From: Bacillota bacterium
GTDB taxonomy: Bacteria; Bacillota; Sulfobacillia; Sulfobacillales; JAIMBI01
Direction of reading: 5' to 3'
NCBI GenBank assembly: GCA_021795575.1
Contig: JAJYPH010000001.1
Span: 5,128-69,127, forward strand
DNA: 64,000 nucleotides
Under the pieces are notes generated by a model. That model ran no database searches. It saw only the letters and a program-made list of their open reading frames with translations, and was not told the DNA's origin. This document shows positions 16,573 through 40,643 of this stretch, piece after piece. The position numbers were made by a program, and so were the translations under genes. The stretch's first letter is position 1, and every line of letters begins with the position of its first letter.

Positions 16573-16584
16573 GCTAAATCCCCC

Positions 16585-25077: not shown

Positions 25078-25218
25078 ATGGGACTCCTCCTCGCTATGGC
25101 CGCGCATCGCGACACATCACCCAGTATCCCATCCGACACAGGCGCCGCCAAGTCAGTGCACGGGATGGCGCCGGGCCACCGCGCCGAGGGTCCGATGGCC
25201 GGGATCCTTTGGTGGGCG

Positions 25219-25348: not shown

Positions 25349-26668
25349 TTACGGAGCTAAAGACCCCATCACCTCACGCGCATCGTGGAACCGGGCGAAG
25401 CGTTCGATGCCGTTCTGCCATGCCCGCCGAAATGCGGGATCTCTTTGAAGGCCTTCCTCCTCGATCCACAGTCCCTGGATCTTCAGGACGTTCGTTGAGC
25501 GGTCCAGTTTTGGATCCATGCGGCCCACCAGCCGGTCTTGATAGAGAATGGGCATGGTGTACGCACCCCACCGACGCGTCTCCGCTGGCTTGTAAATCTC
25601 CCACACGCATTCGAACCCAAAGAGCTCCCGCAGCCGCTCCCGTGGCGCCACCACGTTGTCGAGCGGTGACAGGAAGGTGACTTCCACGTCCGTCCCCGTC
25701 GCCGTGGCCCACTCATGGGGCACGGCTCCCCGAGAGAGCGTGTCCAGAAGCGCCAAGTACTCCGCGTGCACGAACCGCGCGGCGTGTGCCCCCGCGACGG
25801 TGACTGGGACGGCGATCCCGGCCGCAATCAGGTCCGTCATCCAGGCCGCGGCCTCCTTGGGACCGACGGGCTCGAACAGCCTATAGCCGACGCCCCCGGA
25901 CCATTCCCGGAGAGTGGGTAGTGCCGAACGGCGGAGCACCTCCTGGGCGGCGTGGGTGCGAACCGCTGGTTCAGCGACCGGGTCGCCCGTCGGGGGAGCG
26001 ATGCGTTCCGTAAGGTCGTAGATGCGCTCGAATCCTTCCCGGTGATGGGTCATGAGCTCACCGGTGAGCCAGAGGTGGTAGAGGGCCAGTCCGGCGGCGC
26101 TGCTTGCCCGGCCCGACCTCACCGGCGTTTGGTCGGGCAGGTTGCGGGCCGACACGGGTCCCCGGTCCCGGACTACAACCCGAACCTCGTCCACCAACGC
26201 CGCATGGTCGGTGAGAAAGGTCCGCACGCGCGGCTCGTCGCGGCGGCGCGCCTTATGACGTTCCCAGTACGGATATTCTTCGATGGGGTATACGTCGAGA
26301 TGGCCGCCATACTCAAAGAACCGCCGGTCCTGGTACACCAGGGTGCCGAGGTCATCCCGCCGGTATCCTGACACCCGGCTGCTCAGTACGAGGTCGTGGC
26401 TGCGGGACACGAGGGAGACCGGGTCGAGCTGGAGGTGACCCAGGGCATGAATCGCACGGGCCGTCCCCTCCTTGTCCGCCCACCGGCGTCCCGGCCACAA
26501 GCCTTGCACCCCAAGAAGAAAGCGCCGGGCGACATCCCCGGTTATCTCTATGGATTCGATGGCACCCCAACCTCTCGCCGAGTCGTAGCGCGGGCGCCGC
26601 CGCGGGGCCGGCGTCCAGGCGGCGCCTGAACAGCACGCGCCTCCGACCGCGGGGCAACCAATCCGCAC
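25349..26668 (-). CDS. YcaQ/AlkZ-like winged-helix DNA glycosylase family protein
   Basis: ARRFLLGVQGLW..LGHLQLDPVSLVSRSHDLVL..RRFFEYGGH..YPYW is typical of the family. The start is unresolved: the nearest in-frame starts are GTG 26668 and ATG 26746, and the track maximum is 26941. Confidence 0.75.
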   Translation of the reverse strand: MRIGCPAVGGACCSGAAWTPAPRRRPRYDSARGWGAIESIEITGDVARRFLLGVQGLWPGRRWADKEGTARAIHALGHLQLDPVSLVSRSHDLVLSSRVSGYRRDDLGTLVYQDRRFFEYGGHLDVYPIEEYPYWERHKARRRDEPRVRTFLTDHAALVDEVRVVVRDRGPVSARNLPDQTPVRSGRASSAAGLALYHLWLTGELMTHHREGFERIYDLTERIAPPTGDPVAEPAVRTHAAQEVLRRSALPTLREWSGGVGYRLFEPVGPKEAAAWMTDLIAAGIAVPVTVAGAHAARFVHAEYLALLDTLSRGAVPHEWATATGTDVEVTFLSPLDNVVAPRERLRELFGFECVWEIYKPAETRRWGAYTMPILYQDRLVGRMDPKLDRSTNVLKIQGLWIEEEGLQRDPAFRRAWQNGIERFARFHDAREVMGSLAP

Positions 26669-27139
26669 GGGCCGTGGGTCCGGCGACCGCCGCCACGGGA
26701 CCACTATAGCCCGTGGCTGACCAGCATTCGTGGCGTGGTGGGCCATGTCCTGCACGAGGCTGGGGGGAGAACGCCGGAGCTGTGGCCGGGCGCGCGCCAC
26801 GCGATCCGAGCGTGACTCAGTAGCCCGCGGCACCACACGCCCCGGCCGGAAACCCAAGGGGGAGTCATCGGGGCCTGATGGCCCACTCTCTCCGAGCACG
26901 TCCGTCGGGCAGACGTCGTTTCCCGCGGATCCGTGCCGCAATCCCCGCCCCTTCGGTAAACCAGCGTGTTGACTCCCTAATGCTTACCCGGCACGGCCAA
27001 GGAGCGTGATATCGACGACCAGTTCGCCGCTCGGTGTCACGGACCGCCAGGCGCTCGGCGCTCCGTGGGGTCCCAGCGGAAGCACTCCCACGGCCACGCC
27101 AGCCGGCGCGCGCCCCGCTGACGCGCGGCAACCCGAGGA

Positions 27140-28147
27140 TTAGGTCTCGGACGGGGGGGCTGCTTCAGATCGCGCCTGCCACGCCTGCATCACCCGGTGG
27201 GCTTCCACGACGTTCCCGGTGAGCAGCACCGCGGTCGACGCGCCCACGGTCACCCGACCGCTGAGCAGTGCGGCCACGCCCACGGCCGCCGCCCCTTCCA
27301 CGATCAGGCGATGGTGATCCAACAAGAAGCACAACGCCTCGACAATTTCCTCTTCGCTCACCTCAACGAGGTCATCCACCCAGTGGCGTACCAGCGCCAG
27401 CGTGAATTGGTTGTCCGCGCCGACACCCCCCAGCAGGCTGTCGGCCCACGTGGGGGCCTCGGGCGCATCGACGGGACGGCCGGCCCGCACGCTCGCCGCC
27501 ATGCTGCCCGCATGCCGGGCGCCCACCCCAATGACCCGGGCCGCAGGATGGACGGCCTTCACGGCAAGCGCCACACCGGACAGCAAGCCTCCTCCCGATA
27601 CGGGAACCAGGACGGTGTCGACGTCGGGGCAGCGGTTCATCAAATCCCACCCGGCCGTCCCCTGCCCCGCAATGACGTCAGGATCGTCAAACGGGGGCAC
27701 CAGCAGGAGGCCCTCGGCGCCCGCCGCTTCCTGGCACCGGCGGGCGGCATCCTCCTGGGTCTGCCCGCTTACCGTCACCTGGGCCCCCCACTGCTGCAGC
27801 TGGGCGACTTTCACCGCGGGCACGGTGGTGGGAAGAAACACGCGCGCGGGCACGCCCAAACGCTGGGCCATATACGCCACGGCGGTGCCGTGATTGCCTG
27901 TGGAGAACGTGGCGACGCCTGGGAGCTCCCCACCAAGCTGTCGGGCCACCAAGGCGTGGGCCGCGCCCCTAATCTTGAACGAACCGACGGGATTGAGAAA
28001 CTCCAGCTGCAGGGCGACGCGTCCGCCGGCCACGCGGCCCAGCGGGAGGGACGGCACGAGCGGCACCGGCCACACCCATGGCCGGATCCGCTGGTGCGCC
28101 CGCCACACATCCTGAGCCGTGGGAACCCGGTACTCCCCCGGGTTCAC
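27140..28147 (-). CDS. PLP-dependent threonine/serine dehydratase-fold enzyme, EutB-like
   Basis: SFKIRGA carries the PLP lysine, with GNHG and GGGLLSG motifs and no ACT domain. ADSLLGGVGADNQFTLAL matches my recollection of the hydroxyectoine-dehydratase EutB signature. ATGA overlap with the M24 gene. Confidence 0.8.
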   Translation of the reverse strand: MNPGEYRVPTAQDVWRAHQRIRPWVWPVPLVPSLPLGRVAGGRVALQLEFLNPVGSFKIRGAAHALVARQLGGELPGVATFSTGNHGTAVAYMAQRLGVPARVFLPTTVPAVKVAQLQQWGAQVTVSGQTQEDAARRCQEAAGAEGLLLVPPFDDPDVIAGQGTAGWDLMNRCPDVDTVLVPVSGGGLLSGVALAVKAVHPAARVIGVGARHAGSMAASVRAGRPVDAPEAPTWADSLLGGVGADNQFTLALVRHWVDDLVEVSEEEIVEALCFLLDHHRLIVEGAAAVGVAALLSGRVTVGASTAVLLTGNVVEAHRVMQAWQARSEAAPPSET

Positions 28148-29343
28148 GCCGACCGGCCCGTGGGAAATTCCGTCTTGGTCAGCAGGTCGCGCGTGAAGTG
28201 GGTCAACAATTCAACGCCGGTGTCGGTCACAGCCAGCGTCTCACTGATTTCCAGCCCGCGCGGTTCGACCCACATCCCCGCAATGAGATGAAAGGTCATA
28301 CCCGGCCGCAGCAGCGTGCGGTCCCCCGCCCGCAGGCTGGCCGTGTGCTCACCCCAATCGGGCGGGTAGCCGACGCCCACCGCATACCCCAGCCGCGACG
28401 CCTTTTCGTATCCGCTGGCGGCGAGGCAGCGGCGCCACGCCGCCTCTACCTCCTCACACACCGCGCCCGGCCGCGCCGCCTCCAGCGCGGCGTCCACGCC
28501 TGCCAGCACCACGTCGGCCAGGCGCCGATAGTCGTCGGGGGGCGTGCCCAGATACAGCGTGCGGGCCAGCGGGGCATGGTACCGGTGGCGGCAGCCCGCC
28601 AGCTCCAGGTTCACCACGTCCCCCACCTGGTAGCTGCGGTCCACCCAAGTGAGATGCGACGCCGTCGTGCGCTCCATGGAAGGCATGAGCGGCACAATCG
28701 CGGGATAGTCGCCGGGGAGACCCTCCAGGCCCTCGATTTCGGCGCGAAAAATCTGGGCCGCCGCGTCGGCCTCGCGCACCCCAGGCTCAATCACGGCCAG
28801 CGCCGTCTCCATCGCATACTGGGCAATGGCCGCCGCCTCCCGCATCAGGGCCAGTTCCGCCGGGGACTTCACGCTCCGGACCCAATTCACCAGGAGGCTC
28901 GCATCCAGCCAGGTGGCGGCTGGCAGGAGCCGCTGCAGGGCCAGGTAGGACTGCGCGGTGAAGTAGTACGCGTCCAATTCCAGGCCGACGCGGCGCTGGT
29001 CGAGATGGAGCTCGCGCAGCAGCGCCGCGACGGTCTCCATGGGGTGATGATCCGTGGACTGAATGTAGGTCTCGGGATAGGCGCGAATGTGGTCCGCCGA
29101 CAGCCACGTCGTCAGGCGCGCACCGTTCGCGTCCTGAGGCCGGCCGATCCAGTACGGTTCGGGGTCCCAGCCCACCACCACCACCATTTGCGGGACGTAG
29201 AACGACCAGCCGTCATATCCGACCAGGTAGTTCATGTTGGCCGGGTCCGCGACCAGCAGCACCTCGATGCCAGCACGACCCATGCTCTGCTGGACGTTGT
29301 GGATCCGAGCCTGGTATTCCCCCACGCTGAACGGCCTCTCCAC
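28144..29343 (-). CDS. M24 creatinase/prolidase-fold hydrolase, DoeA/EutD (ectoine hydrolase)-like
   Basis: Has a creatinase_N domain plus an M24 domain. Motifs include GYDGWSFYV, GDYPAIVP, HLTW, RYHAPLARTLYLG, YPPDWGE and PGMTFH. GTG 29343 with AGGAGG 8 nt upstream gives 400 aa; the track ORF to 29628 is filler. Confidence 0.8.
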   Translation of the reverse strand: MERPFSVGEYQARIHNVQQSMGRAGIEVLLVADPANMNYLVGYDGWSFYVPQMVVVVGWDPEPYWIGRPQDANGARLTTWLSADHIRAYPETYIQSTDHHPMETVAALLRELHLDQRRVGLELDAYYFTAQSYLALQRLLPAATWLDASLLVNWVRSVKSPAELALMREAAAIAQYAMETALAVIEPGVREADAAAQIFRAEIEGLEGLPGDYPAIVPLMPSMERTTASHLTWVDRSYQVGDVVNLELAGCRHRYHAPLARTLYLGTPPDDYRRLADVVLAGVDAALEAARPGAVCEEVEAAWRRCLAASGYEKASRLGYAVGVGYPPDWGEHTASLRAGDRTLLRPGMTFHLIAGMWVEPRGLEISETLAVTDTGVELLTHFTRDLLTKTEFPTGRSA

Positions 29344-29393
29344 CGCCACCGCCTCCTGCTTCTTCCTGTCGCTCGAGTTGGGTTGCCGACCGG

Positions 29394-30038
29394 TCAGCGG
29401 TACAGCGCCTGCCGCCGCTCCAGGGTGCTGCCGATGCGCGACAGCGTCAGATTGATAATGAGATACGCGATGGCGGCCATGCCGTACATGATGGCCGGCT
29501 GCTCGGTGGCCGACGTGCCCAGCCGCGCCTGGTACATGATGTCGGCAATCCCCACCAGATACAGCAAGGTCGTGTTTTTGACCTGGAGCACCAAAAAGGT
29601 CATCAGCGAGGGCAGCATGACCATCCACGCCTGCGGCAGAATGATTCTTCGCAGCGCCTGCACCCGCGTGAGCCCCAAGGCATCGGCGGCCTCGCGCTGT
29701 CCCACGGACACCGCTTCAATTCCGGCGCGGAAAATCTCCACCGCATAGCCCACGCCATACAACACCAGCCACAAGAGGCCGGCACTGAAGGACGACAGGT
29801 TGATTTGGAACTGGCTTAGTCCAAAATAGATGATAAACAGCTGCAGAATCGGGGGCAGTCCGCGGATAATCTCCACGTACACCGTGATGGCGCCCCCCAA
29901 AAGCTTGCCGCCGTAAATCCGCCCGACGGCGGCCAGTATGCCCACCACCACCGAGACAGCCACCGCGATCGCCGTCAGCTCCAAGTCGACGCCGCCGCCA
30001 TCGACGATGGCTTGCCAGTACAAGGCCACCACATGCAT
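29394..30038 (-). CDS. polar amino acid ABC transporter permease
   Basis: 214 aa His/Glu/Gln/Arg/opine-family permease containing an EAA-loop-like segment (GQREAADALGLTRVQALRRIILPQA). ATGA overlap with the ATPase gene. Confidence 0.88.
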   Translation of the reverse strand: MHVVALYWQAIVDGGGVDLELTAIAVAVSVVVGILAAVGRIYGGKLLGGAITVYVEIIRGLPPILQLFIIYFGLSQFQINLSSFSAGLLWLVLYGVGYAVEIFRAGIEAVSVGQREAADALGLTRVQALRRIILPQAWMVMLPSLMTFLVLQVKNTTLLYLVGIADIMYQARLGTSATEQPAIMYGMAAIAYLIINLTLSRIGSTLERRQALYR

Positions 30039-30865
30039 CAGGGATGGTCACCTCCCAGTGCGGTCGTGGCTCCGGGGCCACTTGCTTGACCATCCCCCGC
30101 GGCCTCCAGGGGCTTTAAGACACGGGTGAGAAATGTTCGGGACCGCTCGCTGGTGGGATGCTCCAGCACGTCGCGGGCCGGCCCGGTTTCCACCACGCGG
30201 CCGTCCGCCATCACCACCACGGTGTCAGCCACTTCTTTGGCAAACTGCATCTCGTGGGTCACCAGAATGAGCGTCATCCCCTGCGCCGCCAGTCCCCGGA
30301 TGGTTCCCAGCACCTCTCCGACCATCTCGGGGTCCAACATAGACGTCGGCTCGTCAAACAGCATCACCTCAGGGTCCATGGCGAGTGCACGGCAGATGGC
30401 CACGCGCTGCTGCTCGCCCCCCGACAGGCGACGCGGGTACGCCTCGGCTCGGTCCGCCAGCCCCACCGAGGTTAAGAGCGCCATCGCCTTGTCTCGAGCC
30501 TCGCTCGCCGGCACCCGCTTGGTTTCCATGGGACCCAGCATGACGTTGCCCAGCGCGGTCAGGTGGGGAAACAGGTTGAACGTCTGAAACGCCATGCCCA
30601 CCTGCATGCGAATCTGCCGCAACGTCGCCTTGCTGGGCGGTCCCCCACCGCCGACCAGCTCATGGTCCAGCACCCGGATGCGGCCAGCCTCGAACGGGTG
30701 CAGGTAGTTGATGCACCGAATGAACGTACTTTTCCCCGCCCCGCTGGGCCCGATGACGGCCACCACCTCGCTCCGGTGCACCTGGAACGAAATGTCCTCA
30801 AACACCGTGCGCGGCCCGAACCGCTTCGTCAGTCCTTGAATGTCAACTACGACGTCGCTGGACAT
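30038..30865 (-). CDS. amino acid ABC transporter ATP-binding protein
   Basis: Walker A GPSGAGKST, signature LSGGEQQRVAI, Walker B MLFDEPTS. ATG 30865 (MSSDVVVDIQGL) with SD GGTGGGAG. About 35-aa C-terminal tail. Confidence 0.9.
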   Translation of the reverse strand: MSSDVVVDIQGLTKRFGPRTVFEDISFQVHRSEVVAVIGPSGAGKSTFIRCINYLHPFEAGRIRVLDHELVGGGGPPSKATLRQIRMQVGMAFQTFNLFPHLTALGNVMLGPMETKRVPASEARDKAMALLTSVGLADRAEAYPRRLSGGEQQRVAICRALAMDPEVMLFDEPTSMLDPEMVGEVLGTIRGLAAQGMTLILVTHEMQFAKEVADTVVVMADGRVVETGPARDVLEHPTSERSRTFLTRVLKPLEAAGDGQASGPGATTALGGDHP

Positions 30866-31502
30866 TAAGCTCCCACCTCGCCAGGATGCGTGATAGTAAG
30901 ATGTAGAACGCAAAGTACACTAGGCCCGCCAGCAGGAACATGTCCATGGGCTGAAACGTGGCGGCCGCGGCCGCATTGGCCTGAAACATCAAGTCGGTCA
31001 CGCCGATCGTCAGCACCAGCGACGTGTCCTTGATGAGGTTGCTCAGCTCGTTGGTCCCCGGCGGCAAAAACGCCAGAAACGCCTGCGGCAGCACAACCCG
31101 GCGCATCACCGCGCCGTTCGACAAGCCCAACGCGACCGCGGCCTCGCGCTGCCCCGGGTCGACCGACTGCAGACCGCTCCGCATGTCCTCGCCATAGAGC
31201 GTCCCGTAAAAGGCCCCCAGCGCCACGACGCCGGCCCAAAACCCGGGCAGACGCAGTCCCAGCTGGGCGAGACTGTAGTACGCCGTAAACAACAGCACTA
31301 GGACCGGCACCGCCCGAAACACTTCCACGTATCCGGTGGCGATGGCCGCCAGGATGCGGATCCGTCCCGTGCGGGCCAACACCAACAGCGTGCCCAGCGC
31401 CAGGGCCAGCACGAGCGCGGCCCCGGTCAGCTGCAGCGACACCACCAATCCCGCCAGAAACTGGGGTAGGTATTGGCCCCACAACTGCAGCGTGCTCATC
31501 AC
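30843..31502 (-). CDS. polar amino acid ABC transporter permease
   Basis: 219 aa. This second permease of the same family (GQREAAVALGLSNGAVMRRVVLPQA) gives an Ehu-like two-permease layout. Confidence 0.88.
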   Translation of the reverse strand: MMSTLQLWGQYLPQFLAGLVVSLQLTGAALVLALALGTLLVLARTGRIRILAAIATGYVEVFRAVPVLVLLFTAYYSLAQLGLRLPGFWAGVVALGAFYGTLYGEDMRSGLQSVDPGQREAAVALGLSNGAVMRRVVLPQAFLAFLPPGTNELSNLIKDTSLVLTIGVTDLMFQANAAAAATFQPMDMFLLAGLVYFAFYILLSRILARWELNVQRRRS

Positions 31503-31577
31503 CCCCCTGTTGTCCTAACCTGTAGCCGCCTGGCGAGCCGGCTGCCGTGCCTCCGCTTCGCCCCCTCCCCGTGCGCA

Positions 31578-32444
31578 CTAGCCTCCCTGATAGCTGTTCG
31601 GCGCCTGACAGATGCCGTTCAAAAACACGGGGCTTTTCATCCCGTACTGGTCCAGCATCTTTTGCTCCTGGCCGTTGCACGCAATCTTTTTCAGGTAGGC
31701 GTTCAACTTGGCGAGGAAGCTGGCGCTGTACTTGCCCTTAGGAATCCCGTAGTAGCCGCGCAGGCTGGCCAGCGGTGGCGCAATCGACGACGGCATCGCG
31801 CCGAGGATCTTGATGTTCAGCGACGGGTTTTGGTGGATGGCCCACGCCACGTCCGTGTCGGGCTGAAAGTCGGCCGCGACGCGGCCCGTGGACAGCGCCT
31901 GGAACGAGTCGGCGATGTTGCCGTACTGTTTCACCACGGCGTGGGGCACCTTTTGGGCCTCCGTCACTTCCTCCGAGCCTACCACCACCGCAATTTTCTT
32001 GCCAGTCATGGCGGATACGGTCGGCCGCGTGATTTGGGGATGCGTCGCGCTGACCGCCACCACATCGTTGTAGTTCAGCATGGGTCGGCTGAAGCTGATG
32101 ACCTTCGCCCGCGCCGACGTGTAGTAGATGTCAATCGTGATGTCGGCTCGCTTGGACGCCACCGCCTCGATCGACGCGGAGAACGGCAGCGAATCGACCA
32201 CCAGCTTGGCTCCCAGCGTTTTCGCGAATCCCTGGAGAATGTTCACGTCGTAGCCGGTCCACTGGTGCGTGGTGGGATTCTGGAAGTCCTCGGGGGCGTA
32301 GGCCGATTCTGCAATGATCAGCTTGTGCGTCTGCTGCACTTGGGCCAGCAGGGTCGCCGGGGCACTGGCGCTGCTGCCGCAGGCGGCCAGCGTGGTCAGC
32401 ATCGCGCCGGCCATGAAGCCATACCAGATCTTTTTCCAGGTCAT
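31578..32444 (-). CDS. family-3 solute-binding lipoprotein of the ABC importer
   Basis: Lipobox in MLTTLAACGSS. Type-3 SBP fold features are present. SD AAAGGGAGGG before ATG 32444. Confidence 0.85.
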   Translation of the reverse strand: MTWKKIWYGFMAGAMLTTLAACGSSASAPATLLAQVQQTHKLIIAESAYAPEDFQNPTTHQWTGYDVNILQGFAKTLGAKLVVDSLPFSASIEAVASKRADITIDIYYTSARAKVISFSRPMLNYNDVVAVSATHPQITRPTVSAMTGKKIAVVVGSEEVTEAQKVPHAVVKQYGNIADSFQALSTGRVAADFQPDTDVAWAIHQNPSLNIKILGAMPSSIAPPLASLRGYYGIPKGKYSASFLAKLNAYLKKIACNGQEQKMLDQYGMKSPVFLNGICQAPNSYQGG

Positions 32445-32507
32445 GATGCCCTCCCTTTCGTGAACAGCGCTCTCAAGGCGCTCGCTTTCGACGTCCGGAC
32501 CGGGTCC

Positions 32508-33962
32508 TCACCGGGATATCGCGTCTGACAGGTTGAAACACACCACCTTCGTCTCGGTCATGGCTTCGGCGGCATACCGGACGCCCTCCCGCCCCAGTCC
32601 ACTGCCCTTGAAGCCGCCGAACGGCATGTGGTCGACACGGAAATCACTGCTGTCGTTGACCATCACCCCCCCCACGTGGAGCTCCCGAATGCACCGATGG
32701 GCCAGATCCAGGCTTCGGGTGAACACCCCCGCCTGCAGCCCGTAGGGCACGTCATTGGCGCGGGCGATGGCCTCATCGACACTCGATACGGGGAAGACGC
32801 TCACCACCGGCCCGTACACTTCTTCGCGATAGAGGCGGCTGGTTCGCGGCACATGAGCCATGACCGTGGGGGCGTAGAAGGCGCCCTGCCGCGTGCCCCC
32901 CACCAGCACCTCCGCCCCGCCGGCCACGGCTTCGGCCACCCACTCCCCGATCCGAATGGCTTCGCGCTCGTGGATCATGGGACCCATGTCCGTGTCCTCC
33001 GCCAACTTGGACCCCATGCGCCGGGCGCGCGTCCGGCCCACCAATTGGTCCATGAACCGGTCAGTGACGCTGTCGGCAACAAACACCCGCTGCACGCCCA
33101 GGCAGTTTTGTCCCGCGTTGCTAAAGGCGCCCGACGCGATGGCGTCGGCCGCCCGATCCACATCGGCGTCCGCCAGCACCAGCACGGGCGAATTAGCCCC
33201 CAACTCCATGGCCAGCTTCTTTAAGCCCGCCTGGCGCGCGATGGCCTCGCCGGTCGCCAGCCCGCCGGTGAACGACACCATGGCCACGGCGGGATGGCTG
33301 ACCAGCACGCCGCCAAGGCGCGCGCCGCTGCCCGTGACGACGGCCAGCACTTCGGGGGGCACGCCCGCCTCGAGCAGGGTTTCCACGAGCAGCAGCGCCG
33401 ACAGGGGCGTCGCGCTGGCGGGCTTGAGCACGACGGCATTGCCGGCGGCTAAGGCCGGGCCCACCTTGTGGACGACCAGATTCAGGGGGTCGTTGAACGG
33501 TGTGATGGCCGCCACCACGCCCAACGGCACGCGTTCGTAATATCCGCGGCGCCCCTCGGCGCCCGGCCGCCGGTCGAAGGCAATCGTCTCCCCCGCGAGG
33601 CGCGCGCTTTCTTCAGACGCCAGACGCAGGGTGTCCACCGCGCGGCGCACCTCAGCGCGCCCCTCGCGGATCGTTTTGCTGCTCTCGCAGGCAATCGTGT
33701 AGGCAAACGTCTCCGCACGGCTTTCCACCAAGTCCGCCGCATGCCGCAGCATGCTCTGGCGCTCGTGGACCGCCAGCCGCCGCGCGATGTCCGCCCCCGC
33801 CGCCGCGCCCGCGATCGCGTCGGCCATCATGGTATCGGTGCCATCGGGCACCCGCCCAATGACCGATCCATCTTCCGGGTCATGGACCGCCAACGTCGCG
33901 TCCGTGGCTACCCACTGCCCCTGAATCAGGTTCTGCGGAGAGGTCCGCTGCAGGTTCGTCAT
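32508..33962 (-). CDS. NAD(P)-dependent aldehyde dehydrogenase
   Basis: 484 aa ALDH with ELGANSP (catalytic Glu), FSNAGQNC (catalytic Cys) and the EEVYGPV motif. 4-nt overlap with the upstream gene. Confidence 0.88.
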   Translation of the reverse strand: MTNLQRTSPQNLIQGQWVATDATLAVHDPEDGSVIGRVPDGTDTMMADAIAGAAAGADIARRLAVHERQSMLRHAADLVESRAETFAYTIACESSKTIREGRAEVRRAVDTLRLASEESARLAGETIAFDRRPGAEGRRGYYERVPLGVVAAITPFNDPLNLVVHKVGPALAAGNAVVLKPASATPLSALLLVETLLEAGVPPEVLAVVTGSGARLGGVLVSHPAVAMVSFTGGLATGEAIARQAGLKKLAMELGANSPVLVLADADVDRAADAIASGAFSNAGQNCLGVQRVFVADSVTDRFMDQLVGRTRARRMGSKLAEDTDMGPMIHEREAIRIGEWVAEAVAGGAEVLVGGTRQGAFYAPTVMAHVPRTSRLYREEVYGPVVSVFPVSSVDEAIARANDVPYGLQAGVFTRSLDLAHRCIRELHVGGVMVNDSSDFRVDHMPFGGFKGSGLGREGVRYAAEAMTETKVVCFNLSDAISR

Positions 33963-35020
33963 GACGCACCACCTTCCGCGGCCCGCGGGTGCGGGCCACG
34001 CACCACGTCCAACAGGTCGCGCAGCAGGGCATAGCCGGTCTCGCGGCGCCCGGCGCCGGGACCCATCAAGGTGACATGACCCAACAAGTCCGTCTGGTAG
34101 GTGATGGCATTCATGACGCCGGGGACTGCCGCCAGCGGGTCATCCCCTGCCAGTAGCTCCGGCTGCACCGTGGCTCGCAGCGGGCCCTCCCGAGCGTCCA
34201 GCGCCGCCACCAGCCGCCAGTGCCGACCGCGAGCGCGAGCGTCGGCCAGCTCGGCATTGCCCACCCCCGTGATGCCGGTGCGCTCGACACCCTCCACTGA
34301 CAGGGGCCGCCCCAGCACGTGGCGAGCGAGGATGACCAGCTTGTACGCCGCGTCGAAGCCTTCCACATCCCCGCGGGGATCGGCTTCGGCATAGCCCGCC
34401 GCCTGCGCCTCCGCCAAGGCGCCCGCATACGACGCGCCGTCTTCCATGCGGCTCAGCATGAAGTTGGTGGTGCCGTTCAGAATCCCACGCACGCTGCGCA
34501 CCGTGTCCCCGGCCAGGGTCTCGCGGGCCAGCCGCAGCGCGGGCGTGCCGCTCATCACGGTGCCCTCCACGCCCAGCCGCACGCCGCGCGCCGCCGCCAG
34601 GTGAAACAGCTCGTCATACGCATGCACCAGCGGCCCCTTGTTCGAGGTCACCACATGTTGGCCCCGGTCCAGCGCCATCCGGCAGTGCGTCGTGGCCGGC
34701 TCGCCCGATGGCGTCGTCGGCGTGGCCTCCACCATCACATCGGCGTCGGCGCCGACAATGGTGTCGAGGCTGTCCCATCCGCGGCCCAGCCCGTCCTGGT
34801 CGGGGTAGGTCCGAATCCCCTGGGGCGCCTTGAGCGCCGTCAGCAGCGCCGCGACATCGAGGCCCCGCGCCCGGGCGGCCGCGCCCCGCACCGGGTCCGA
34901 TACGGCCACCACCGCGACGTTCAAGCCATAATGCGCCGCAAGGTGGGGACCGCGATCCCTCAGCAGCTCGAGGAAGGCTCGGCCCACCCCTCCGCATCCA
35001 ATCAAGGCCACCCTCACCAT
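33959..35020 (-). CDS. homoserine dehydrogenase-family oxidoreductase (no ACT domain)
   Basis: MVRVALIGCGGVGRAF Rossmann start at ATG 35020, with GGAGGAGGG 9 nt upstream. Catalytic-domain motifs GILNGTTNF and EADP. Confidence 0.8.
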   Translation of the reverse strand: MVRVALIGCGGVGRAFLELLRDRGPHLAAHYGLNVAVVAVSDPVRGAAARARGLDVAALLTALKAPQGIRTYPDQDGLGRGWDSLDTIVGADADVMVEATPTTPSGEPATTHCRMALDRGQHVVTSNKGPLVHAYDELFHLAAARGVRLGVEGTVMSGTPALRLARETLAGDTVRSVRGILNGTTNFMLSRMEDGASYAGALAEAQAAGYAEADPRGDVEGFDAAYKLVILARHVLGRPLSVEGVERTGITGVGNAELADARARGRHWRLVAALDAREGPLRATVQPELLAGDDPLAAVPGVMNAITYQTDLLGHVTLMGPGAGRRETGYALLRDLLDVVRGPHPRAAEGGAS

Positions 35021-36273
35021 ACGGGTCGTCCCTCCTCCCCATCCGCCTCGTCCGTCACGACCCCTGTGCGCAGGCGGGCGAGCGCGGTCCGCGCCGTCTC
35101 CGCCAACCAGGCGGCCCCCAGCGGCAGGACTCGTTCGTCCAGGGCAAACGCGGGCGAGTGCAGCGTGGTGGCCTGCCCCTCGACTCCGCACCCGACGAAG
35201 GCCAGGGCGGCGGGCACCTGCTCCGCGACGTACGCAAAGTCTTCGGCGCCCATCCCAAACGGCTGGCGACGCACCCGCACGTGAGGAGACAGCGCGGCCA
35301 GCGCATCCGCCAGGACCTGGTTGGCCCGCCCATCGTTGCGCAGGGGGGGTTCGCCGCGACGAATGTGCAGGCGATAATCGCCGCCCAGCGCCCGGGCCAC
35401 CTGAAAGGCCCGCTCCAGCTCCTCGGCCAGCTGCTGGCGGAGCACGGGAGAATAAGTCCGGAGCGTGCCGTCCAGCGTCACTTCAGTGGGTGTCACATTG
35501 GGGGCGGTTCCGCCTGCCACGCGTCCCACCGTGATCACCGCACTGTCCAGCGGCGACACCCGCCGCGACACGATCGAGTGCAGCACCGTCAAGACCGGCC
35601 CCAGCAGCCACACCGGATCCAGGGCCCGGTCCGGATAGCCGGCATGGCCGCCCCGTCCCATGACGGTGCCTTCGAACACATCACAGCTGGCCATGGCGTA
35701 TCCGGTCCAGAGATCCACCGTGCCCGGTGGCGCCTCGGGGTTCATGTGCAGCGCAAACGCCATGGCCACCTCTTCCAGGATGCCAGCTTGGATGAGGTGG
35801 TACGCGCCCGTACGTCCCTCGTCGTCCGGCGACTCCTCCGCCGGCTGAAACACCAGCCGCACGCGGCCCCCGAGCGCCCCCGCACGCTGCCACGCATCCA
35901 ACTGCGCCGCCGCACCCAGCAGCATCGCGACGTGGCCGTCGTGTCCGCACGCATGCATGCGGCCCGGAATCTTGGAAACGAACTCCGCGCCAGCCGGCTC
36001 ATCGATGGGCAGGGCATCCATGTCGGCGCGCAGGAGCACCACCGGACCCGATCCTTCGCCCACGTCGGCCACCACGCCGGTACCGCCCACCTCGGTGCGG
36101 ACGCGAACGCTGGACCACTGATGGAGACGCTCGGCAATGTAGGCCGCGGTCTCGAACTCGTGAAACGCCAACTCGGGATGGGCGTGCAGATGGCGGCGGT
36201 CGCGCACCAGCGCCTCGCGCGCCCCCGGCGTCATCCGGCTCCCCCAGGAGGGCCCGTCACCGTCCGTCGCCAT
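35014..36273 (-). CDS. M20/M25/M40 amidohydrolase (N-acyl-L-amino acid amidohydrolase/hippuricase type)
   Basis: LHAHPELAFHEFETAAYI, RADMDALP and MHACGHDGH motifs. ATG 36273 with SD AAGGGTGG. Confidence 0.82.
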   Translation of the reverse strand: MATDGDGPSWGSRMTPGAREALVRDRRHLHAHPELAFHEFETAAYIAERLHQWSSVRVRTEVGGTGVVADVGEGSGPVVLLRADMDALPIDEPAGAEFVSKIPGRMHACGHDGHVAMLLGAAAQLDAWQRAGALGGRVRLVFQPAEESPDDEGRTGAYHLIQAGILEEVAMAFALHMNPEAPPGTVDLWTGYAMASCDVFEGTVMGRGGHAGYPDRALDPVWLLGPVLTVLHSIVSRRVSPLDSAVITVGRVAGGTAPNVTPTEVTLDGTLRTYSPVLRQQLAEELERAFQVARALGGDYRLHIRRGEPPLRNDGRANQVLADALAALSPHVRVRRQPFGMGAEDFAYVAEQVPAALAFVGCGVEGQATTLHSPAFALDERVLPLGAAWLAETARTALARLRTGVVTDEADGEEGRPVW

Positions 36274-36307
36274 CACCACCCTTTCGGCGCGTTCTGTGGC
36301 GCACGGC

Positions 36308-37525
36308 TCAGCGGGCCGCCGCGGCCTGACCCGTGGCCGCGAGCGCTCCGTCCAAGTCCGCCAGCAGGTCGTCCACGTCCTCAATGCCGACGGAATACCG
36401 GATCAGGGCTTCCGGGATGCCCAGGGCCTCGCGTTCGTCTGAAGACAGTTCCACGTGGCTGGTGGTGCGCGGCGGCCCGGCGACGGTTTCCACCGCACCC
36501 AGATTGGCCGCCAAATGGGCATACCGCAGACGCGGGAGCATCGTCCGCACGGCTTCAAACCCGCCCTGGATGGCAAACGACACCACACCGCCAAATCCCC
36601 GCATCTGTCGTTTCGCGATGGCATGGCCGGGATGGCTCGGGAGCCCCGGGTAGTAAACCTGCGCGACCGCGGCATGCTGCTCAAGAAACTGGGCGATCGC
36701 GAGTGCGCTGGCGTTTTGCCGCTGAATCCTGAGGTCCAGCGTCTTCATGCCTCGGAGCAGCAGATAAGCCGCCTCGGGATGCAACGTGGCGCCGTTCACC
36801 TCGCGGAAGTGAAACAACTGGTCAATCAGAGATTTGGACCCGCACGCGACGCCTCCGAGGGCGTCGGCGTGCCCCCCTAAAAATTTCGTGGCACTGTGAA
36901 TCACCAGGTCGGCTCCGAGTGCCAACGGTGACTGGTTGATGGGGGTGGCGAACGTGTTGTCCACCACCACCAGCGCCCCATGGCGATGGGCTGTCGTGAT
37001 GAGGCGCTCGAGGTCCAGCACCTTGAGGGTGGGGTTGGTGGGGGATTCGAGGTACAGCAGCTGGCAGCCGCGGGCAATCTCCGCCTCGATGGCTTCGTGG
37101 TCGGTGGTTTCGCACAGCGCCACCTCGATATTAAATCGCGGGAGAAATTCCAGGAACAGCAAACTGGTCCCGCCGTACGAGTCCTTGATGGACACGACCC
37201 GGTCCCCCGGGCGGAGGAGGGTAAAGAGCGTGTTGCTAATCGCGGCCATCCCGGTGGAAAAGCTGGTGGCCGCCTCTGCCCCTTCCAGCAGACGCACCTT
37301 TTCTTCGAAAGCTTCCACGGTGGGATTGGTGTTCCGCCCATAGATATGTCCGGGCGCTCGGCCCATCGCCACGTCAAACCACGTGTCGACATCCTCGTAG
37401 CCAAACGACACACTGTGCACCACCGGCACCTGCGTGGCGCGTCCCGGCCACTCGCCGGCGTCTCCCCCCCATACGGCCACCGTACCGGGCCGTGCGGGCA
37501 TCCTGCTGCCGCTGTTCATGTCCAT
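36308..37525 (-). CDS. Cys/Met-metabolism PLP enzyme (cystathionine gamma-synthase / gamma-lyase family)
   Basis: 405 aa. YGRNTNPT and HSATKFLGGH (PLP lysine) are typical of gamma-family transsulfuration enzymes. The start may be the third codon, ATG 37519, which has better SD spacing. Confidence 0.85.
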   Translation of the reverse strand: MDMNSGSRMPARPGTVAVWGGDAGEWPGRATQVPVVHSVSFGYEDVDTWFDVAMGRAPGHIYGRNTNPTVEAFEEKVRLLEGAEAATSFSTGMAAISNTLFTLLRPGDRVVSIKDSYGGTSLLFLEFLPRFNIEVALCETTDHEAIEAEIARGCQLLYLESPTNPTLKVLDLERLITTAHRHGALVVVDNTFATPINQSPLALGADLVIHSATKFLGGHADALGGVACGSKSLIDQLFHFREVNGATLHPEAAYLLLRGMKTLDLRIQRQNASALAIAQFLEQHAAVAQVYYPGLPSHPGHAIAKRQMRGFGGVVSFAIQGGFEAVRTMLPRLRYAHLAANLGAVETVAGPPRTTSHVELSSDEREALGIPEALIRYSVGIEDVDDLLADLDGALAATGQAAAAR

Positions 37526-37568
37526 ACCCCCTACGCTCGTTGCTGCTTTAAGACTCGGTGCGACGCCC

Positions 37569-38549
37569 TCACGGGCGCAGTTCCTGCCCCACCTCCTCCG
37601 CGAGCGCCCGTTGATACGCCAGGCGGGCCACGGCCGTATCCTGGATGCCGGTCCCCGTCAGGTCGCACACCGTGACTTGGTCCGACGCCGTCCGGCCCGG
37701 ACGCCGCCCGGCCACCACCGCGCCCAGCTCCCACAGGCGACCGGGATCCAGACTCCCCGCCTCCACGGCGTGGCGGCTGTCGCCGAGGGTGAGCGCCTGC
37801 GCGCGCACATCGCACACGGCGACGTCCGCCCGGCGCCACACGTCCCCCGCCAGCTCCTGCTTGTCGGGGGCATCCGCCCCCATCGCCGTAATGTGCTGAC
37901 CCGCATGCAGCCACTTCCCCTCGACGAGCGGCGCACGTGACGGCGTGGCCGTCACCACCACGTCACTGGTGCGCACCAGCCGCTCGAGATCGGGCGTGGG
38001 CTCGGCCTCCCGGTGCAAGTCCCGCGTGGCCCGCTCGGCCAGCTGACGCGCATGGTCCGACGTCGGGCTCCACACCAGCACCCGCCGGTACGGCCGCACC
38101 AGCAGCAGGGCGCACAGTTGAAACCACGCCTGCACGCCGCTGCCCACCAGCCCCACCGTGTCCACGCGCGGGGGTGCCAGCCACTGGGCGGCCACCGCGC
38201 CGGCCGCGGCCGTCCGCACCGTGGTCAGGTATCCGCCATCCAGCAGCAGGGCCACCGGCGTGCCGGTGGCCGCGCTGAACAGCACCATCAGCCCGTCGCC
38301 GCTCGGCAGGCCGCGCGCCGGGTTGTCGAAAAATCCGGTGGACATCTTGACGGCAAACGAGTCCCAGCCGCGCGCGTGGGCGGTTTTGACATCAATTTCC
38401 CCGCGCGATTCCGGCAGGTCCAGTCGCAGGATGGGCGGCGTGGCCACGCTGCCCTCCCCCAGCGCCCGAAACCCGTCCGCCACGGCCGCGACGACGTCGA
38501 GCGACAGCGGCACCAGGCGACGGATGTCGGACTCCGCCAATACTCGCAC
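37569..38549 (-). CDS. ornithine cyclodeaminase/mu-crystallin family protein, EutC-like
   Basis: OCD-family body with the GSGVQA Rossmann motif. GTG 38549 (VRVLAESDIRRL) with AGGAGG 6 nt upstream. First gene of the 11-gene operon. Confidence 0.8.
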   Translation of the reverse strand: MRVLAESDIRRLVPLSLDVVAAVADGFRALGEGSVATPPILRLDLPESRGEIDVKTAHARGWDSFAVKMSTGFFDNPARGLPSGDGLMVLFSAATGTPVALLLDGGYLTTVRTAAAGAVAAQWLAPPRVDTVGLVGSGVQAWFQLCALLLVRPYRRVLVWSPTSDHARQLAERATRDLHREAEPTPDLERLVRTSDVVVTATPSRAPLVEGKWLHAGQHITAMGADAPDKQELAGDVWRRADVAVCDVRAQALTLGDSRHAVEAGSLDPGRLWELGAVVAGRRPGRTASDQVTVCDLTGTGIQDTAVARLAYQRALAEEVGQELRP

Positions 38550-38763
38550 GACGCACCTCCTGCCGCGAATCTCATCCCCCTGAGCTTGAGGGCAGCGGTT
38601 CGCCCCCACAACCGCGACGGTGTACAAAAATCAGGACAGCGCATGCGGCACATTGCCGGAACAGTGCGAATCGACAGCCGTCCCATGAGCAGGATCCGCC
38701 AGCGGCGGCGACGAAGAAGGCATCACGAGCCCGCTGCGCTGCGGGAAAGAGGGGGCGGATCCC

Positions 38764-40293
38764 ATGACGTTCACCGTGGCCGACCTGATGGGCCTGCCCA
38801 TCATGCGGGGGGCCCACGAACTGACGGGGGTGGGTGGCCCGCGACCCATTCGCTCGGTTTCGGTCATCGAGGCGCCGGTGGAAGAGTTCGTGCGCGAGGG
38901 CGAGTTGGTGCTGACCACCGGCATGGGATGCACGGAGCCGGAACCGCTGCTGGCGCTGGTGGCCGACATTGCCCGCGCCAAAGCGTCGGCGGTCGGGATT
39001 GCCACCGGCTACTACGTCGCCGCCATTCCGTCCGCCGTGGTCGATCTGGCGCAGTCCTGGCACCTCGCCCTGGTGGACATCCCGTGGGAGGTGCGCTTCT
39101 CGGAAATTACGGAGGCGGTGTCCGAGGTGCTGCTGGCCGAGCGCCGCCAGCTACTGGATCAGGCCAAAGAGATGCAGTCGGATGTGTGGCGCGTGATCCT
39201 GCGGCACGGCAGCGCCTCGGACGTGCTGGCGGCCCTGGCGGCCCGCATCGCGGCGCCGCTGTGGATCGCCGACGCCGATGGCGGCCTGCTCGCGGGAGAT
39301 CCGACCGCCGCACCCGGCGAGGCGCTCACGGTCCCCATCCGTTCGACCACCCGCTTGGAGGGGTACCTGCACGTCGTCGCGGCATCCCCGGGGTCCGTCG
39401 ACCCGGACTTGGCGTCCGAGGCGGCCAGTGCCCTGGCCACGTGGTTTCTCTATCAGGAGGCCGAGCGCCAACGCCGCTTTCAGTCGCGTGACGCCCTGTT
39501 GTGGAGCCTGGCGTACGGGGAGGTGGACCCGAGCGACGTCGCGGACCGGGCCCAGATTTTCGGCTATCATCCGACCCGCCCCTATCTGGGTCTATTGGGC
39601 CGCGTGGACCACGTGGACCCCACGGAAGGATCCGAGGCCGGCGTGCTCAGTACGGTGCACGCGTTGGTGGTGAAATCCCTGGCGCGGTGGTCGCCGGCTC
39701 CCCTCGCGGCACGGCGCGGCGACAGCTTTTTGGTGTATCTCGAAATCCGACCGGGGGATCCCGTGCAGGTAGCCCGCCGCTTTCTGGACGACCTGGATCG
39801 GCGGCTCCGGGATTTGAGCCCTCGCGTGGTGATGTCCTGGGGCATTGGCTTGGCCGACCAACCCGGGGATCGGTTCCATCACGCGTACCGCCAAGCGCAC
39901 GAGGCGCTGAACATCGGCTATGGGTTGGCGGGGCCGGGCCACCGCACCTACTTCAGCGATGTGCGGATCTATCAGATGTTGCTGCACCTGGCCCAGGAGC
40001 CCGTGGCCCAGGAGCTGCTGGCGGCCACGCTGAGCCCGCTTGACGCGTACGACGACAAGCGCCATGGGGAGTTGGTCCCCACCCTCGACGCCTTCATTCG
40101 CACGCGCGGCCAAATCAGTGAAACGGCCCGCCTCCTGAACCTGCACCGCCAGTCCCTCACATACCGGCTTTCGCAGATTGAACGGCTGACGGGCCGGACC
40201 CTGGACGACCCGGAAACCTGGTTTCTGTTTTCGTTCGCGCTGCACATTCGGAAGCTGCAGACGGCGACGCTGCATCTCCATCCCGAGGCCTGA
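38764..40293 (+). CDS. PucR-family transcriptional regulator
   Basis: 509 aa with an N-terminal PurC-like sensor domain (LMGLPIM..VSVIEAP..GELVLTTG) and a C-terminal PucR HTH (ISETARLLNLHRQSLTYRL). Divergent from the catabolic operon. Confidence 0.88.
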   Translation: MTFTVADLMGLPIMRGAHELTGVGGPRPIRSVSVIEAPVEEFVREGELVLTTGMGCTEPEPLLALVADIARAKASAVGIATGYYVAAIPSAVVDLAQSWHLALVDIPWEVRFSEITEAVSEVLLAERRQLLDQAKEMQSDVWRVILRHGSASDVLAALAARIAAPLWIADADGGLLAGDPTAAPGEALTVPIRSTTRLEGYLHVVAASPGSVDPDLASEAASALATWFLYQEAERQRRFQSRDALLWSLAYGEVDPSDVADRAQIFGYHPTRPYLGLLGRVDHVDPTEGSEAGVLSTVHALVVKSLARWSPAPLAARRGDSFLVYLEIRPGDPVQVARRFLDDLDRRLRDLSPRVVMSWGIGLADQPGDRFHHAYRQAHEALNIGYGLAGPGHRTYFSDVRIYQMLLHLAQEPVAQELLAATLSPLDAYDDKRHGELVPTLDAFIRTRGQISETARLLNLHRQSLTYRLSQIERLTGRTLDDPETWFLFSFALHIRKLQTATLHLHPEA

Positions 40294-40304
40294 CCACCAT
40301 GCGT

Positions 40305-40331
40305 GCAGGGTGGGCATCCTGCCCACCCTGC
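40305..40331. terminator. bidirectional stem-loop between the convergent pucR-like and monooxygenase genes
   Basis: gcagggtgggca tcc tgcccaccctgc: perfect 12-bp arms, 12 nt after the pucR stop and 16 nt after the stop at 40347. No U-tract. Confidence 0.5.
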
Positions 40332-40346
40332 GGCCGCACGCGACCC

Positions 40347-40643
40347 TCAGTCCGCCAGCACCGTGTGCATCTCGAACTGATTGGGCTGGGCAAACATGTC
40401 GGCCGGTGCGCGCTGGCCGTGCGCCTCGCGGAATGCCTCGCTGGCCGTCCAGGCCCGGAAGCTGGCTTCATCCTGCCAGTGGGTCATGACCACGTAGGGA
40501 GCGCCCTCCGTGACCGGACAGAGCACCTCGTTGCGCACGAACCCCGGAGCCCGGTCCACCAAGTGCGCACGCCCGCGAAAGCGGGCCTCAAAGTCCGCCT
40601 CGCGGCCGGCCGCCACAAAAATGCGATTGGCCACCACCACCAT
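40347..40643 (-). CDS. ABM-domain monooxygenase (IsdG/HmoA-like heme-degrading type)
   Basis: 98 aa: NRI.V..G..FE.RF..R...V...PGF....VL. and W.DE.SF..W. Strong SD AAGGAGGAAGCAC before ATG 40643. Confidence 0.75.
   Translation of the reverse strand: MVVVANRIFVAAGREADFEARFRGRAHLVDRAPGFVRNEVLCPVTEGAPYVVMTHWQDEASFRAWTASEAFREAHGQRAPADMFAQPNQFEMHTVLAD

Follow-up and report, generated by a model that had tools for sequence, protein, structure and literature searches.

The 64-kb stretch of contig JAJYPH010000001.1 analysed in this study (hereafter, the window) comes from an uncultured, very GC-rich, Thermaerobacter-like member of the Bacillota and contains an operon of 11 genes with a divergently oriented regulator gene. 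This locus is real and intact, and it probably serves as a substrate-inducible operon, of a 'Gram-positive/PucR' type, for the uptake and catabolism of ectoine and/or 5-hydroxyectoine. Ectoines are abundant, nitrogen-rich osmolytes and stress protectants, and, to our knowledge, experiments on ectoine consumers have so far been made only in Proteobacteria. An earlier note on this DNA had recognized EutB-, EutC- and DoeA/EutD-like genes here. The variant is defined by three genes that the note had left uninterpreted, namely those encoding cystathionine-gamma-synthase (CGS)-family, M20 and homoserine dehydrogenase (HSD) proteins. The features of the locus are as follows.

38764–40293, plus strand: PucR-family transcriptional regulator, divergent from the operon, assigned by its Pfam domains
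38654–38672, minus strand: candidate operator or promoter element of 19 nucleotides (nt) in the pucR–eutC spacer, conserved in four loci
37569–38549, minus strand: EutC-like protein of the ornithine-cyclodeaminase (OCD)/mu-crystallin family, 326 amino acids (aa); PRK08291, TIGR02992
36308–37525, minus strand: CGS-family pyridoxal-phosphate (PLP) enzyme, 405 aa; NF006097/PRK08249
35014–36273, minus strand: M20D amidohydrolase, 419 aa; TIGR01891
33959–35020, minus strand: HSD without an ACT domain, 353 aa; NF004912
32508–33962, minus strand: NAD(P)-dependent aldehyde dehydrogenase (ALDH), 484 aa; generic ALDH matches
31578–32444, minus strand: lipoprotein substrate-binding protein (SBP), SBP_bac_3, 288 aa, with a LAAC lipobox
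30843–31502, minus strand: polar-amino-acid-type ATP-binding cassette (ABC) permease; top match EhuC, below threshold
30038–30865, minus strand: ABC ATPase; matches to TcyN, GlnQ and EhuA, all below threshold
29394–30038, minus strand: second ABC permease; matches to EhuC and EhuD, both below threshold
28144–29349, minus strand: DoeA/EutD-like M24 (creatinase-fold) hydrolase; TIGR02993, PDB 6TWK
27140–28147, minus strand: EutB-like PLP-dependent dehydratase of fold type II, 335 aa; NF005680

In the proteobacterial route of ectoine degradation, EutD is followed by EutE, then by Atf and finally by Ssd. For the operon in the window, we infer the steps after import from homology and conserved gene context. 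The ABC system with its lipoprotein SBP is predicted to import the solute, and its specificity is likewise a prediction. The DoeA/EutD-like M24 hydrolase would open the tetrahydropyrimidine ring to give N-alpha-acetyl-2,4-diaminobutyrate (the acetylated form of 2,4-diaminobutyrate, DABA) or its 3-hydroxy form, and the M20D amidohydrolase would deacetylate N-alpha-acetyl-DABA in place of EutE/DoeB. In the hydroxyectoine branch, EutB may dehydrate 3-hydroxy-DABA to an imine, which EutC, acting as an NAD(P)H-dependent imine reductase, would convert to DABA. By analogy with related enzymes, the CGS-family enzyme would carry out gamma-elimination on DABA followed by the addition of water, yielding homoserine and ammonium, and the ACT-less HSD and then the ALDH would convert homoserine to aspartate semialdehyde and aspartate. 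This CGS-family/HSD/ALDH triad would replace the proteobacterial transaminase Atf and Ssd, and the divergent PucR is presumably an activator of the operon that responds to an intermediate of the pathway.

By tblastn, neither EutE (with probes from two phyla) nor a class-III transaminase (with an EctB probe) gave any match in the window, and no member of the GntR/MocR-type family was found among the 12 cluster proteins, in which the sole regulator is of the PucR type. In these searches, the canonical lower pathway (EutE/DoeB and Atf/DoeD) with EnuR control was not found. The absence of EutE and of a class-III aminotransferase leaves gaps that the M20 protein and the triad would fill. Possibly, although we make this assignment tentatively, the triad forms a previously unrecognized lower branch of ectoine catabolism that is independent of a transaminase, in which DABA would be hydrolytically deaminated at C-gamma to homoserine.

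The M24 hydrolase, EutB and EutC

The M24 protein scored 447 bits on the DoeA model TIGR02993 (EC 3.5.4.44), which is below the equivalog cut-off of 613, as compared with 203 bits on DoeA_2 and 78 bits on PepQ, its top non-ectoine family. It matched the DoeA structure (PDB 6TWK) over its full length (residues 3–386, E=5.6e-109) and is 45% identical to Halomonas elongata DoeA over the aligned length. Three motifs quoted in the earlier note (GYDGWSFYV, GDYPAIVP and YPPDWGE) were located, as was ADSLLGGVGADNQFTLAL, and the three align with identical segments of the crystallized H. elongata DoeA. The protein also retains 94 of the 109 positions conserved in canonical-context EutDs, and a neighbour-joining tree groups it with Sulfobacillus and Salinithrix proteins in a clade made up mainly of Bacillota.

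The EutB-like protein contains the SFKIRG PLP-lysine motif and scored 343.2 bits on NF005680 (cut-off 413) and 300.8 bits on TIGR02991, followed by threonine/serine dehydratase at 263 bits; its score on BhcB was 209.9 bits (cut-off 550). It is 46–52% identical to the EutB copies of related clusters, among which those of Salinithrix (424.8 bits) and locus L086 (425 bits) exceed the cut-off of 413. The EutC-like protein scored 408.8 bits on PRK08291, 0.8 bits over the cut-off of 408, and 369.5 bits on TIGR02992, below the cut-off of 471.65. The next family was that of OCD proteins at 283 bits, and the score on BhcD was 193.9 bits (cut-off 500).

Judged from the sequences, the fold assignments are unambiguous. 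The identities given to the three proteins in the earlier note stand in so far as EutB, EutC and DoeA are the top matches, but, except for EutC on PRK08291, the scores lie below the equivalog cut-offs. The model searches that the note had proposed returned half of what it had named as adverse: the trusted cut-offs were missed, but the proteins do not go with the generic IlvA, OCD or prolidase families.

The note had also regarded the co-occurrence of the three proteins as diagnostic of ectoine/hydroxyectoine utilization in Proteobacteria. This holds to the extent that orthologous clusters elsewhere adjoin genes for an EhuB that passes its threshold, but an identity of ~50% to DoeA is not diagnostic by itself, because equally similar homologues adjoin 5-oxoprolinase genes. 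For most of the EutD homologues recovered at 45–55% identity, no further ectoine gene was found within 10 kb. In six Thalassobaculaceae-like loci, DoeA-like M24 proteins of ~50% identity are encoded directly beside the 5-oxoprolinase genes pxpA/pxpB/pxpC, with no ectoine genes nearby (L021, L027, L029, L030, L032 and L038; about 7.3–11.2 kb in each), which suggests a different lactam or amidine substrate for this subgroup. At eight positions, six ectoine-context EutDs are all alike and the pxp-linked group differs from them; in this test, which is small and partly confounded by lineage, the M24 protein has the ectoine-context residue at all eight. In annotation, ~50% identity to DoeA should not be taken as enough to call an ectoine hydrolase. 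A literature search found nothing on DoeA2, DoeB2 or EutD2.

Conservation of the gene cluster

The operon is collinear from eutC to eutB in three related Bacillota metagenome-assembled genomes (MAGs), with 65–100% protein identity and with pucR again divergent upstream; the proteins of these MAGs are named 'Thermaerobacter sp.' in the sources. Salinithrix halophila, Sulfobacillus and additional MAGs share a core of eutD–eutC–cgs–m20–hsd–aldh together with eutB, and pucR was detected in four of the six loci. Eight cluster proteins are 43–73% identical to their counterparts in Salinithrix, Sulfobacillus and related Bacillota MAGs (29–31% for PucR). In S. halophila, a halophile, the core adjoins the gene for an EhuB that scored 291 bits (cut-off 190.9) and matched the EhuB structure 2Q88 with E=3.4e-53. 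In the same locus (L005), an ectB gene (1184–2626, minus strand; 681 bits, cut-off 552) adjoins the ehu/eut catabolic cluster (3928–17210), so that genes for synthesis and degradation are neighbours.

A second, independent synteny search used the CGS-family protein as its anchor. The CGS–HSD–ALDH triad of a Chloroflexota MAG lies between genes for EhuB and permeases, and beside it are genes for a DoeA_2-type hydrolase, an EutE-type deacetylase (370 bits, cut-off 402.7), EutC (473 bits, cut-off 408) and EutB; the regulator of this cluster is of the GntR/FCD type. A like arrangement, consisting of the triad, a DoeA_2-type hydrolase, an SBP gene and EutC, was found in an Acidobacteriota MAG and one metagenome contig. 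In the two triad loci tested for EhuB, the Chloroflexota MAG and the metagenome contig, the scores were 277.6 and 294.2 bits, respectively (cut-off 190.9). EutB is encoded in the same two loci, and the EutE-type deacetylase in the Chloroflexota and Acidobacteriota loci. The triad recurs wherever the transaminase is missing. In another locus (L088), the CGS gene is accompanied by M24 and M20 genes and a LIV-type ABC system, without HSD or ALDH genes.

These varied enzyme combinations point to a modular set that employs either DoeA or DoeA_2 and either EutE or M20. The triad branch itself may be modular, pairing with DoeA and M20 in Bacillota or with DoeA_2 and EutE in Chloroflexota and Acidobacteriota. 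Further genes were also observed in the triad loci. Beside the Chloroflexota EutE and DoeA_2 genes is a MenC/N-acylamino-acid-racemase-like gene of the enolase superfamily (L085, 2340–3524, minus strand), the product of which might fill the epimerase role ascribed to EutA. In the Acidobacteriota locus, a FAD-dependent oxidoreductase of the DAO family and a second M24 protein are encoded between the ALDH and permease genes (L087, 9539–12214).

Putative lower-pathway genes

The CGS-family protein scored 685.3 bits on NF006097 (PRK08249), above the cut-off of 600, and its top PDB matches are methionine gamma-lyases and CGS. The motifs YGR..NPT, DSYGG, DNTF, SATKFLGGH and RYSVG are present; by the roles known for this family, the PLP lysine lies in SATKFLGGH, and the residues used for gamma-chemistry are present. 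Where methionine gamma-lyases have a YGC motif, the protein has YGG. It is 71–77% identical across phyla, and its gene is the most conserved one of the cluster (69–73% identity to the Salinithrix, Sulfobacillus and related Bacillota MAG copies). Identity of the PRK08249 protein exceeds 70% across Verrucomicrobiota, Chloroflexota, Acidobacteriota and Bacillota, which is unusual for an accessory catabolic enzyme. Elsewhere, PRK08249 genes were observed without M24, HSD or ALDH genes (L084, 8001–9179; L089, 9001–10197): in one locus, a dienelactone-hydrolase-family gene separates the CGS gene from an M20 gene ~1.4 kb away, and M24, HSD and ALDH genes are absent; in one further locus, the CGS gene has no related neighbours. 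If the assignment proposed here is true, it would provide the first function for the widespread and highly conserved PRK08249 family and add a new PLP reaction, the gamma-deamination of DABA to homoserine.

The M20D protein passed the cut-off of TIGR01891 (334.8 bits, cut-off 153.75) and failed that of the DoeB2 model NF038260 (235.3 bits, cut-off 550), which six further M20 proteins, all encoded in loci with EutD, likewise did not reach. In eight other loci, attributed to Bacillota, Peptococcia/Peptococcaceae, Dysosmobacter, Solirubrobacteraceae and Pseudoclavibacter, an M20 gene is the immediate neighbour of the gene for an EutD homologue, and L015, L017 and L088 have M20 genes near EutD as well. 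The HSD scored 375.6 bits on NF004912 (cut-off 373); it lacks an ACT domain and, in a public gene call, has the Pfam domains NAD_binding_3 and Homoserine_dh. In related clusters, the HSD gene always follows the CGS-family or M20 gene. The ALDH gave generic matches, all below equivalog cut-offs, with lactaldehyde dehydrogenase at the top (487 bits); it is 55–61% identical to the ALDHs encoded after HSD in the Bacillota, Chloroflexota and Acidobacteriota clusters. The Ssd/DoeC-like nature attributed to it in the earlier note holds at the superfamily level only.

It is unlikely, in our judgement, that ectoines are degraded through a different lower pathway. In one form of this explanation, the CGS-family protein would be a gamma-lyase that releases 2-oxobutyrate and ammonia from DABA or homoserine, as its closest structural relatives, the methionine gamma-lyases, may lead one to expect; the canavanine gamma-lyase described below also leaks some 2-oxobutyrate, and L088 has a CGS-family gene with M24 and M20 but without HSD or ALDH. 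The YGG motif, in place of the YGC of methionine gamma-lyases, argues against this form. In the other form, aspartate semialdehyde would come from a transaminase with its gene elsewhere, and HSD and ALDH would simply channel this intermediate to homoserine and aspartate, respectively. There is indeed a class I/II aminotransferase gene 2 kb downstream (23956–25107), but it is cut off from the operon by an unrelated AlkZ-like gene and is not significantly similar to the probe, a class-III DABA transaminase. Both forms must also account for the fact that the CGS, HSD and ALDH genes lie side by side in the same orientation in Bacillota, Chloroflexota, Acidobacteriota and one metagenome contig, an adjacency that is most simply explained by a linear three-step route.

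Importer and substrate

The earlier note had described the importer as Ehu-like. This applies to the general subunit composition only, because the SBP scored 33.8 bits on the EhuB model TIGR02995, compared with a cut-off of 190.9, and the permeases and the ATPase are below threshold as well. The SBP gave no match to the EhuB structure 2Q88 at E≤0.001, its top PDB match being the GlnPQ binding domains; it is 17–21% identical to four EhuBs and keeps 15 of the 45 EhuB-invariant positions. By these sequence comparisons, the SBP is not an EhuB orthologue, and a tblastn search with Salinithrix EhuB gave no match anywhere in the window. The first permease (30843–31502) scored 147.5 bits on EhuC (cut-off 196.95) and 133 bits on cystine permease, and the second (29394–30038) scored 133.2 bits on EhuC and 118.4 bits on EhuD, both under the cut-offs. 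The ATPase scored 297.8 bits on TcyN, 277.1 on GlnQ and 272.2 on EhuA (EhuA cut-off 345.4), all below cut-offs. The SBP family numbers ~100 proteins. Many come from acidophiles (Thermaerobacter MAGs, Alicyclobacillus, Sulfobacillus harzensis, Ferrimicrobium and Acidimicrobiaceae), and these acidophile members span two phyla. The four-gene ABC cassette (29394–32444), with the unusual order SBP–permease–ATPase–permease, is a portable unit: the identical order is found as a stand-alone cassette, with neighbours that give no clue to the SBP ligand, in Alicyclobacillus ferrooxydans and Amycolatopsis (L090, 10001–13102; L091, 10001–13021).

Several points weigh against our reading of the operon. Its own SBP is unrelated to EhuB and belongs to a cassette that occurs without ectoine genes in Alicyclobacillus and Amycolatopsis; EutB, EutD and, on TIGR02992, EutC are all under the curated equivalog cut-offs (413, 613 and 471.65, respectively); EutD homologues of equal identity occur in non-ectoine contexts, such as beside pxpABC; the EutA model matched none of the 11 operon proteins; and the CGS-family protein occurs alone in other genomes. 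In addition, we know of no characterized CGS-family enzyme that eliminates a gamma-amino group, and a literature search found no report of DABA gamma-elimination to homoserine in ectoine catabolism or of a gamma-deaminating member of this family. Moreover, Gram-positive clusters of this type are predictions only.

The first three of these points, together with the small size of the SBP family and its many acidophile members, would also fit the main alternative, which we consider rather unlikely: that the same chemistry acts on another substrate taken up through a non-Ehu importer. Such a substrate could be a different cyclic amidine or an N-acyl diamino or hydroxy amino acid from which a gamma-substituted 2-aminobutyrate is formed; possible examples are N-acetyl-DABA itself, a solute resembling homoectoine and an osmolyte specific to acidophiles. 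However, the M24 protein clusters with the EhuB-linked Salinithrix EutD and matches the ectoine-context EutDs at all eight positions that separate them from the pxp-linked group. A like enzyme set is linked to a threshold-passing EhuB in Salinithrix, the Chloroflexota MAG and the metagenome contig, and the transporters around the fixed core vary here, being EhuB-type, LIV-type or absent. Transporter swapping around a fixed catabolic core is common.

Regulation

The regulator matched the Pfam domains PucR (91 bits), GGDEF_2 (50.6 bits) and HTH_30 (69.6 bits), with no equivalog-level NCBIfam match; these domains bear out the earlier description of a divergent regulator of the PucR rather than the MocR type. 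PucR genes also accompany the homologous clusters in Salinithrix and Sulfobacillus.

The 214-nt pucR–eutC spacer contains, on the minus strand, a 19-nt block, GATTCGCACTGTTCCG(G/T)CA, the surroundings of which have diverged. It is the longest block that is identical, bar two single-base differences, in all four related loci, including one in which the flanking proteins are only 62–65% identical, and it occurs once in the window and once each in L001–L003. From this pattern, the block may be a PucR operator or a promoter element. With up to four mismatches allowed, a search of PucR-linked loci at greater distance did not find it beyond the three close relatives, and it therefore cannot be called a general PucR box. 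The spacer has palindromes and repeats only as short, chance-level pairs, and an Rfam scan of the whole window returned no family match and, thus, no sign of riboswitch control.

Gene models and operon boundaries

All of the open reading frames (ORFs) of the 11 minus-strand genes (38549 down to 27140) and the plus-strand regulator were found, and all are intact. The spacings of the operon junctions, computed from starts supported by a ribosome-binding site (RBS), are as follows.

eutC/cgs: gap of 43 nt
cgs/m20: gap of 34 nt
m20/hsd: overlap of 7 nt
hsd/aldh: ATGA overlap, 4 nt
aldh/sbp: gap of 63 nt
sbp/permease: gap of 75 nt (GTG start) or 78 nt (ATG start)
permease/ATPase: overlap of 23 nt
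ATPase/permease: overlap of 1 nt
permease/eutD: gap of 44–50 nt
eutD/eutB: GTGA overlap, 4 nt

The earlier account of 11 genes linked by overlaps or short gaps was thus confirmed, with overlaps of 1–23 nt and gaps of 34–78 nt. The GTG start of eutC is preceded by an AGGAGG RBS, and the models of eight genes, from HSD to EutB, are the same in an independent public gene call on identical metagenome contigs (ENA ERZ27237159; GCA_027346115.1). GC content at third codon positions (GC3) is 0.79–0.88 across all 12 genes, which fits genuine coding frames in a genome of 69% GC, and the long antisense ORFs on the ORF list are the usual artefact of such sequence. Horizontal gain of the ABC cassette, suggested by its GC content of 0.62–0.65, was rejected: because GC3 is uniform, the dip reflects protein composition.

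Taken singly, the CGS-family, HSD, threonine dehydratase-fold and Xaa-Pro-peptidase-fold annotations can each be read as housekeeping, and the locus could then be a chance neighbourhood of methionine/threonine biosynthesis genes, peptidases and an amino-acid importer rather than a catabolic unit. We regard this as extremely improbable in view of the tight translational coupling, the co-occurrence of the gene set with EhuB and/or EutE in several phyla, the lack of a regulatory ACT domain in the 353-aa HSD, the M24 scores of 447 bits on DoeA versus 78 on PepQ, and the dedicated PucR regulator.

Downstream, the operon is flanked by a gene for an AlkZ-like DNA glycosylase (25349–26941, minus strand) that is unrelated to it. 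Past pucR lie a 131-aa ORF without assignment and an ORF with weak, sub-threshold matches to ArsR-type helix–turn–helix domains. Because the flanking genes are unrelated, the operon boundaries hold. A promoter scan of 26800–40500 returned no promoter-like sites, and terminator-like sites in the same region were at chance level (7 versus 5.8±2.3) and uninformative on the boundaries. The class I/II aminotransferase gene mentioned above is on the minus strand outside the operon, past the AlkZ-like gene, and is followed by a Trp-repressor-family gene (both at L081, 9995–11426); it is the only aminotransferase gene identified near the operon, where flanking ORFs were annotated from ~23.8 to 42.9 kb. 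A second AlkZ-like gene, located a few kilobases from the EutD–M20 pair in Pseudoclavibacter (L056, 14968–16077), is probably a coincidence.

Comparison with known systems

Putative Gram-positive ectoine clusters composed of pucR–eutBCD–'atf' and abgB–thrA–adh have been described by Boas Lichty et al. (Appl Environ Microbiol 2026; PMC13188858; April 2026). These clusters have PucR instead of EnuR and no eutE. In that paper, abgB, thrA and adh are described as being of unknown function and the assignment as a whole as tentative, and no mechanism is given for these three genes; two M24 copies per cluster are reported in Thermodesulfobacteriota and Bacillaceae. The operon in the window is another member of this predicted cluster type. 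All eight components (pucR, eutB, eutC, eutD, the PLP enzyme, M20 or 'abgB', HSD or 'thrA', and ALDH or 'adh') are present and intact, EutE and EnuR are lacking, the transporter differs from cluster to cluster, and loci L005–L011 reproduce the layout. It differs in its gene order (eutC–cgs–m20–hsd–aldh–ABC–eutD–eutB, with pucR divergent), in its Thermaerobacter-like host and in its ABC cassette, which is not of the Ehu, BCCT, MFS or TRAP type. By its cluster position, the 'atf' of that study appears to be the PF01053/PRK08249 CGS-family enzyme and not a class-III aminotransferase. The novelty implied by the earlier note, a Gram-positive host with a PucR regulator, is therefore qualified: both features are there, but they had already been predicted (PMC13188858). 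With this locus, the predicted Gram-positive route now includes a Thermaerobacter-like lineage that is uncultured and GC-rich. Hydroxyectoine was found in acid-mine biofilms by Mosier et al. (2013), together with incomplete eut/doe sets in Sulfobacillus and other Firmicutes (PMC3604775).

Compared with the proteobacterial systems DoeABCD (H. elongata), EhuABCD–EutABCDE (Sinorhizobium meliloti) and UehABC–EutABCDE–Atf–Ssd–EnuR (Ruegeria pomeroyi), the operon shares a DoeA/EutD-type ring hydrolase, EutB together with EutC, an ALDH as the final oxidation step and a binding-protein-dependent importer within the operon. In contrast to these systems, it has M20D for EutE/DoeB and the CGS-family protein plus HSD for Atf/DoeD, lacks EutA, uses PucR rather than EnuR/MocR or AsnC, and has an SBP unrelated to EhuB. 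Across phyla, the Atf and Ssd steps appear to have been swapped for a portable CGS-like/HSD/ALDH module.

For the hydroxyectoine branch, published work suggests a rapid conversion of hydroxy-DABA to DABA and gives the activities of EutABC as unknown (PMC8739950). BhcB and BhcD of the beta-hydroxyaspartate cycle resemble EutB and EutC in combining a fold-type-II PLP dehydratase with an OCD-family imine reductase that together remove the beta-hydroxyl from an alpha-amino acid. The scores of the window proteins are far under the cut-offs of these families (550 and 500), and their likely substrate is 3-hydroxy-2,4-diaminobutyrate, so that the relationship is a mechanistic analogy only. We offer as hypotheses that EutB and EutC may act as a BhcB/BhcD-like pair on 3-hydroxy-DABA and that osmolyte catabolism may be under PucR-type control.

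In Pseudomonas canavaninivorans, a cystathionine-gamma-lyase-family enzyme yields homoserine, and HSD and ALDH, which lead to aspartate, are encoded alongside (PMC9533460). The triad in the window suggested canavanine as a substrate, but this was rejected because M24, M20, EutB and EutC have no role in the canavanine pathway. These four proteins suggest ectoine-derived DABA instead, and the leaving group would be ammonia, not hydroxyguanidine. Compared by enzyme description, the two operons share an ABC importer and a three-enzyme logic acting on a gamma-substituted 2-aminobutyrate, and the canavanine operon is, by analogy, the exact experimental precedent for the homoserine formation and the HSD/ALDH oxidation steps proposed here.

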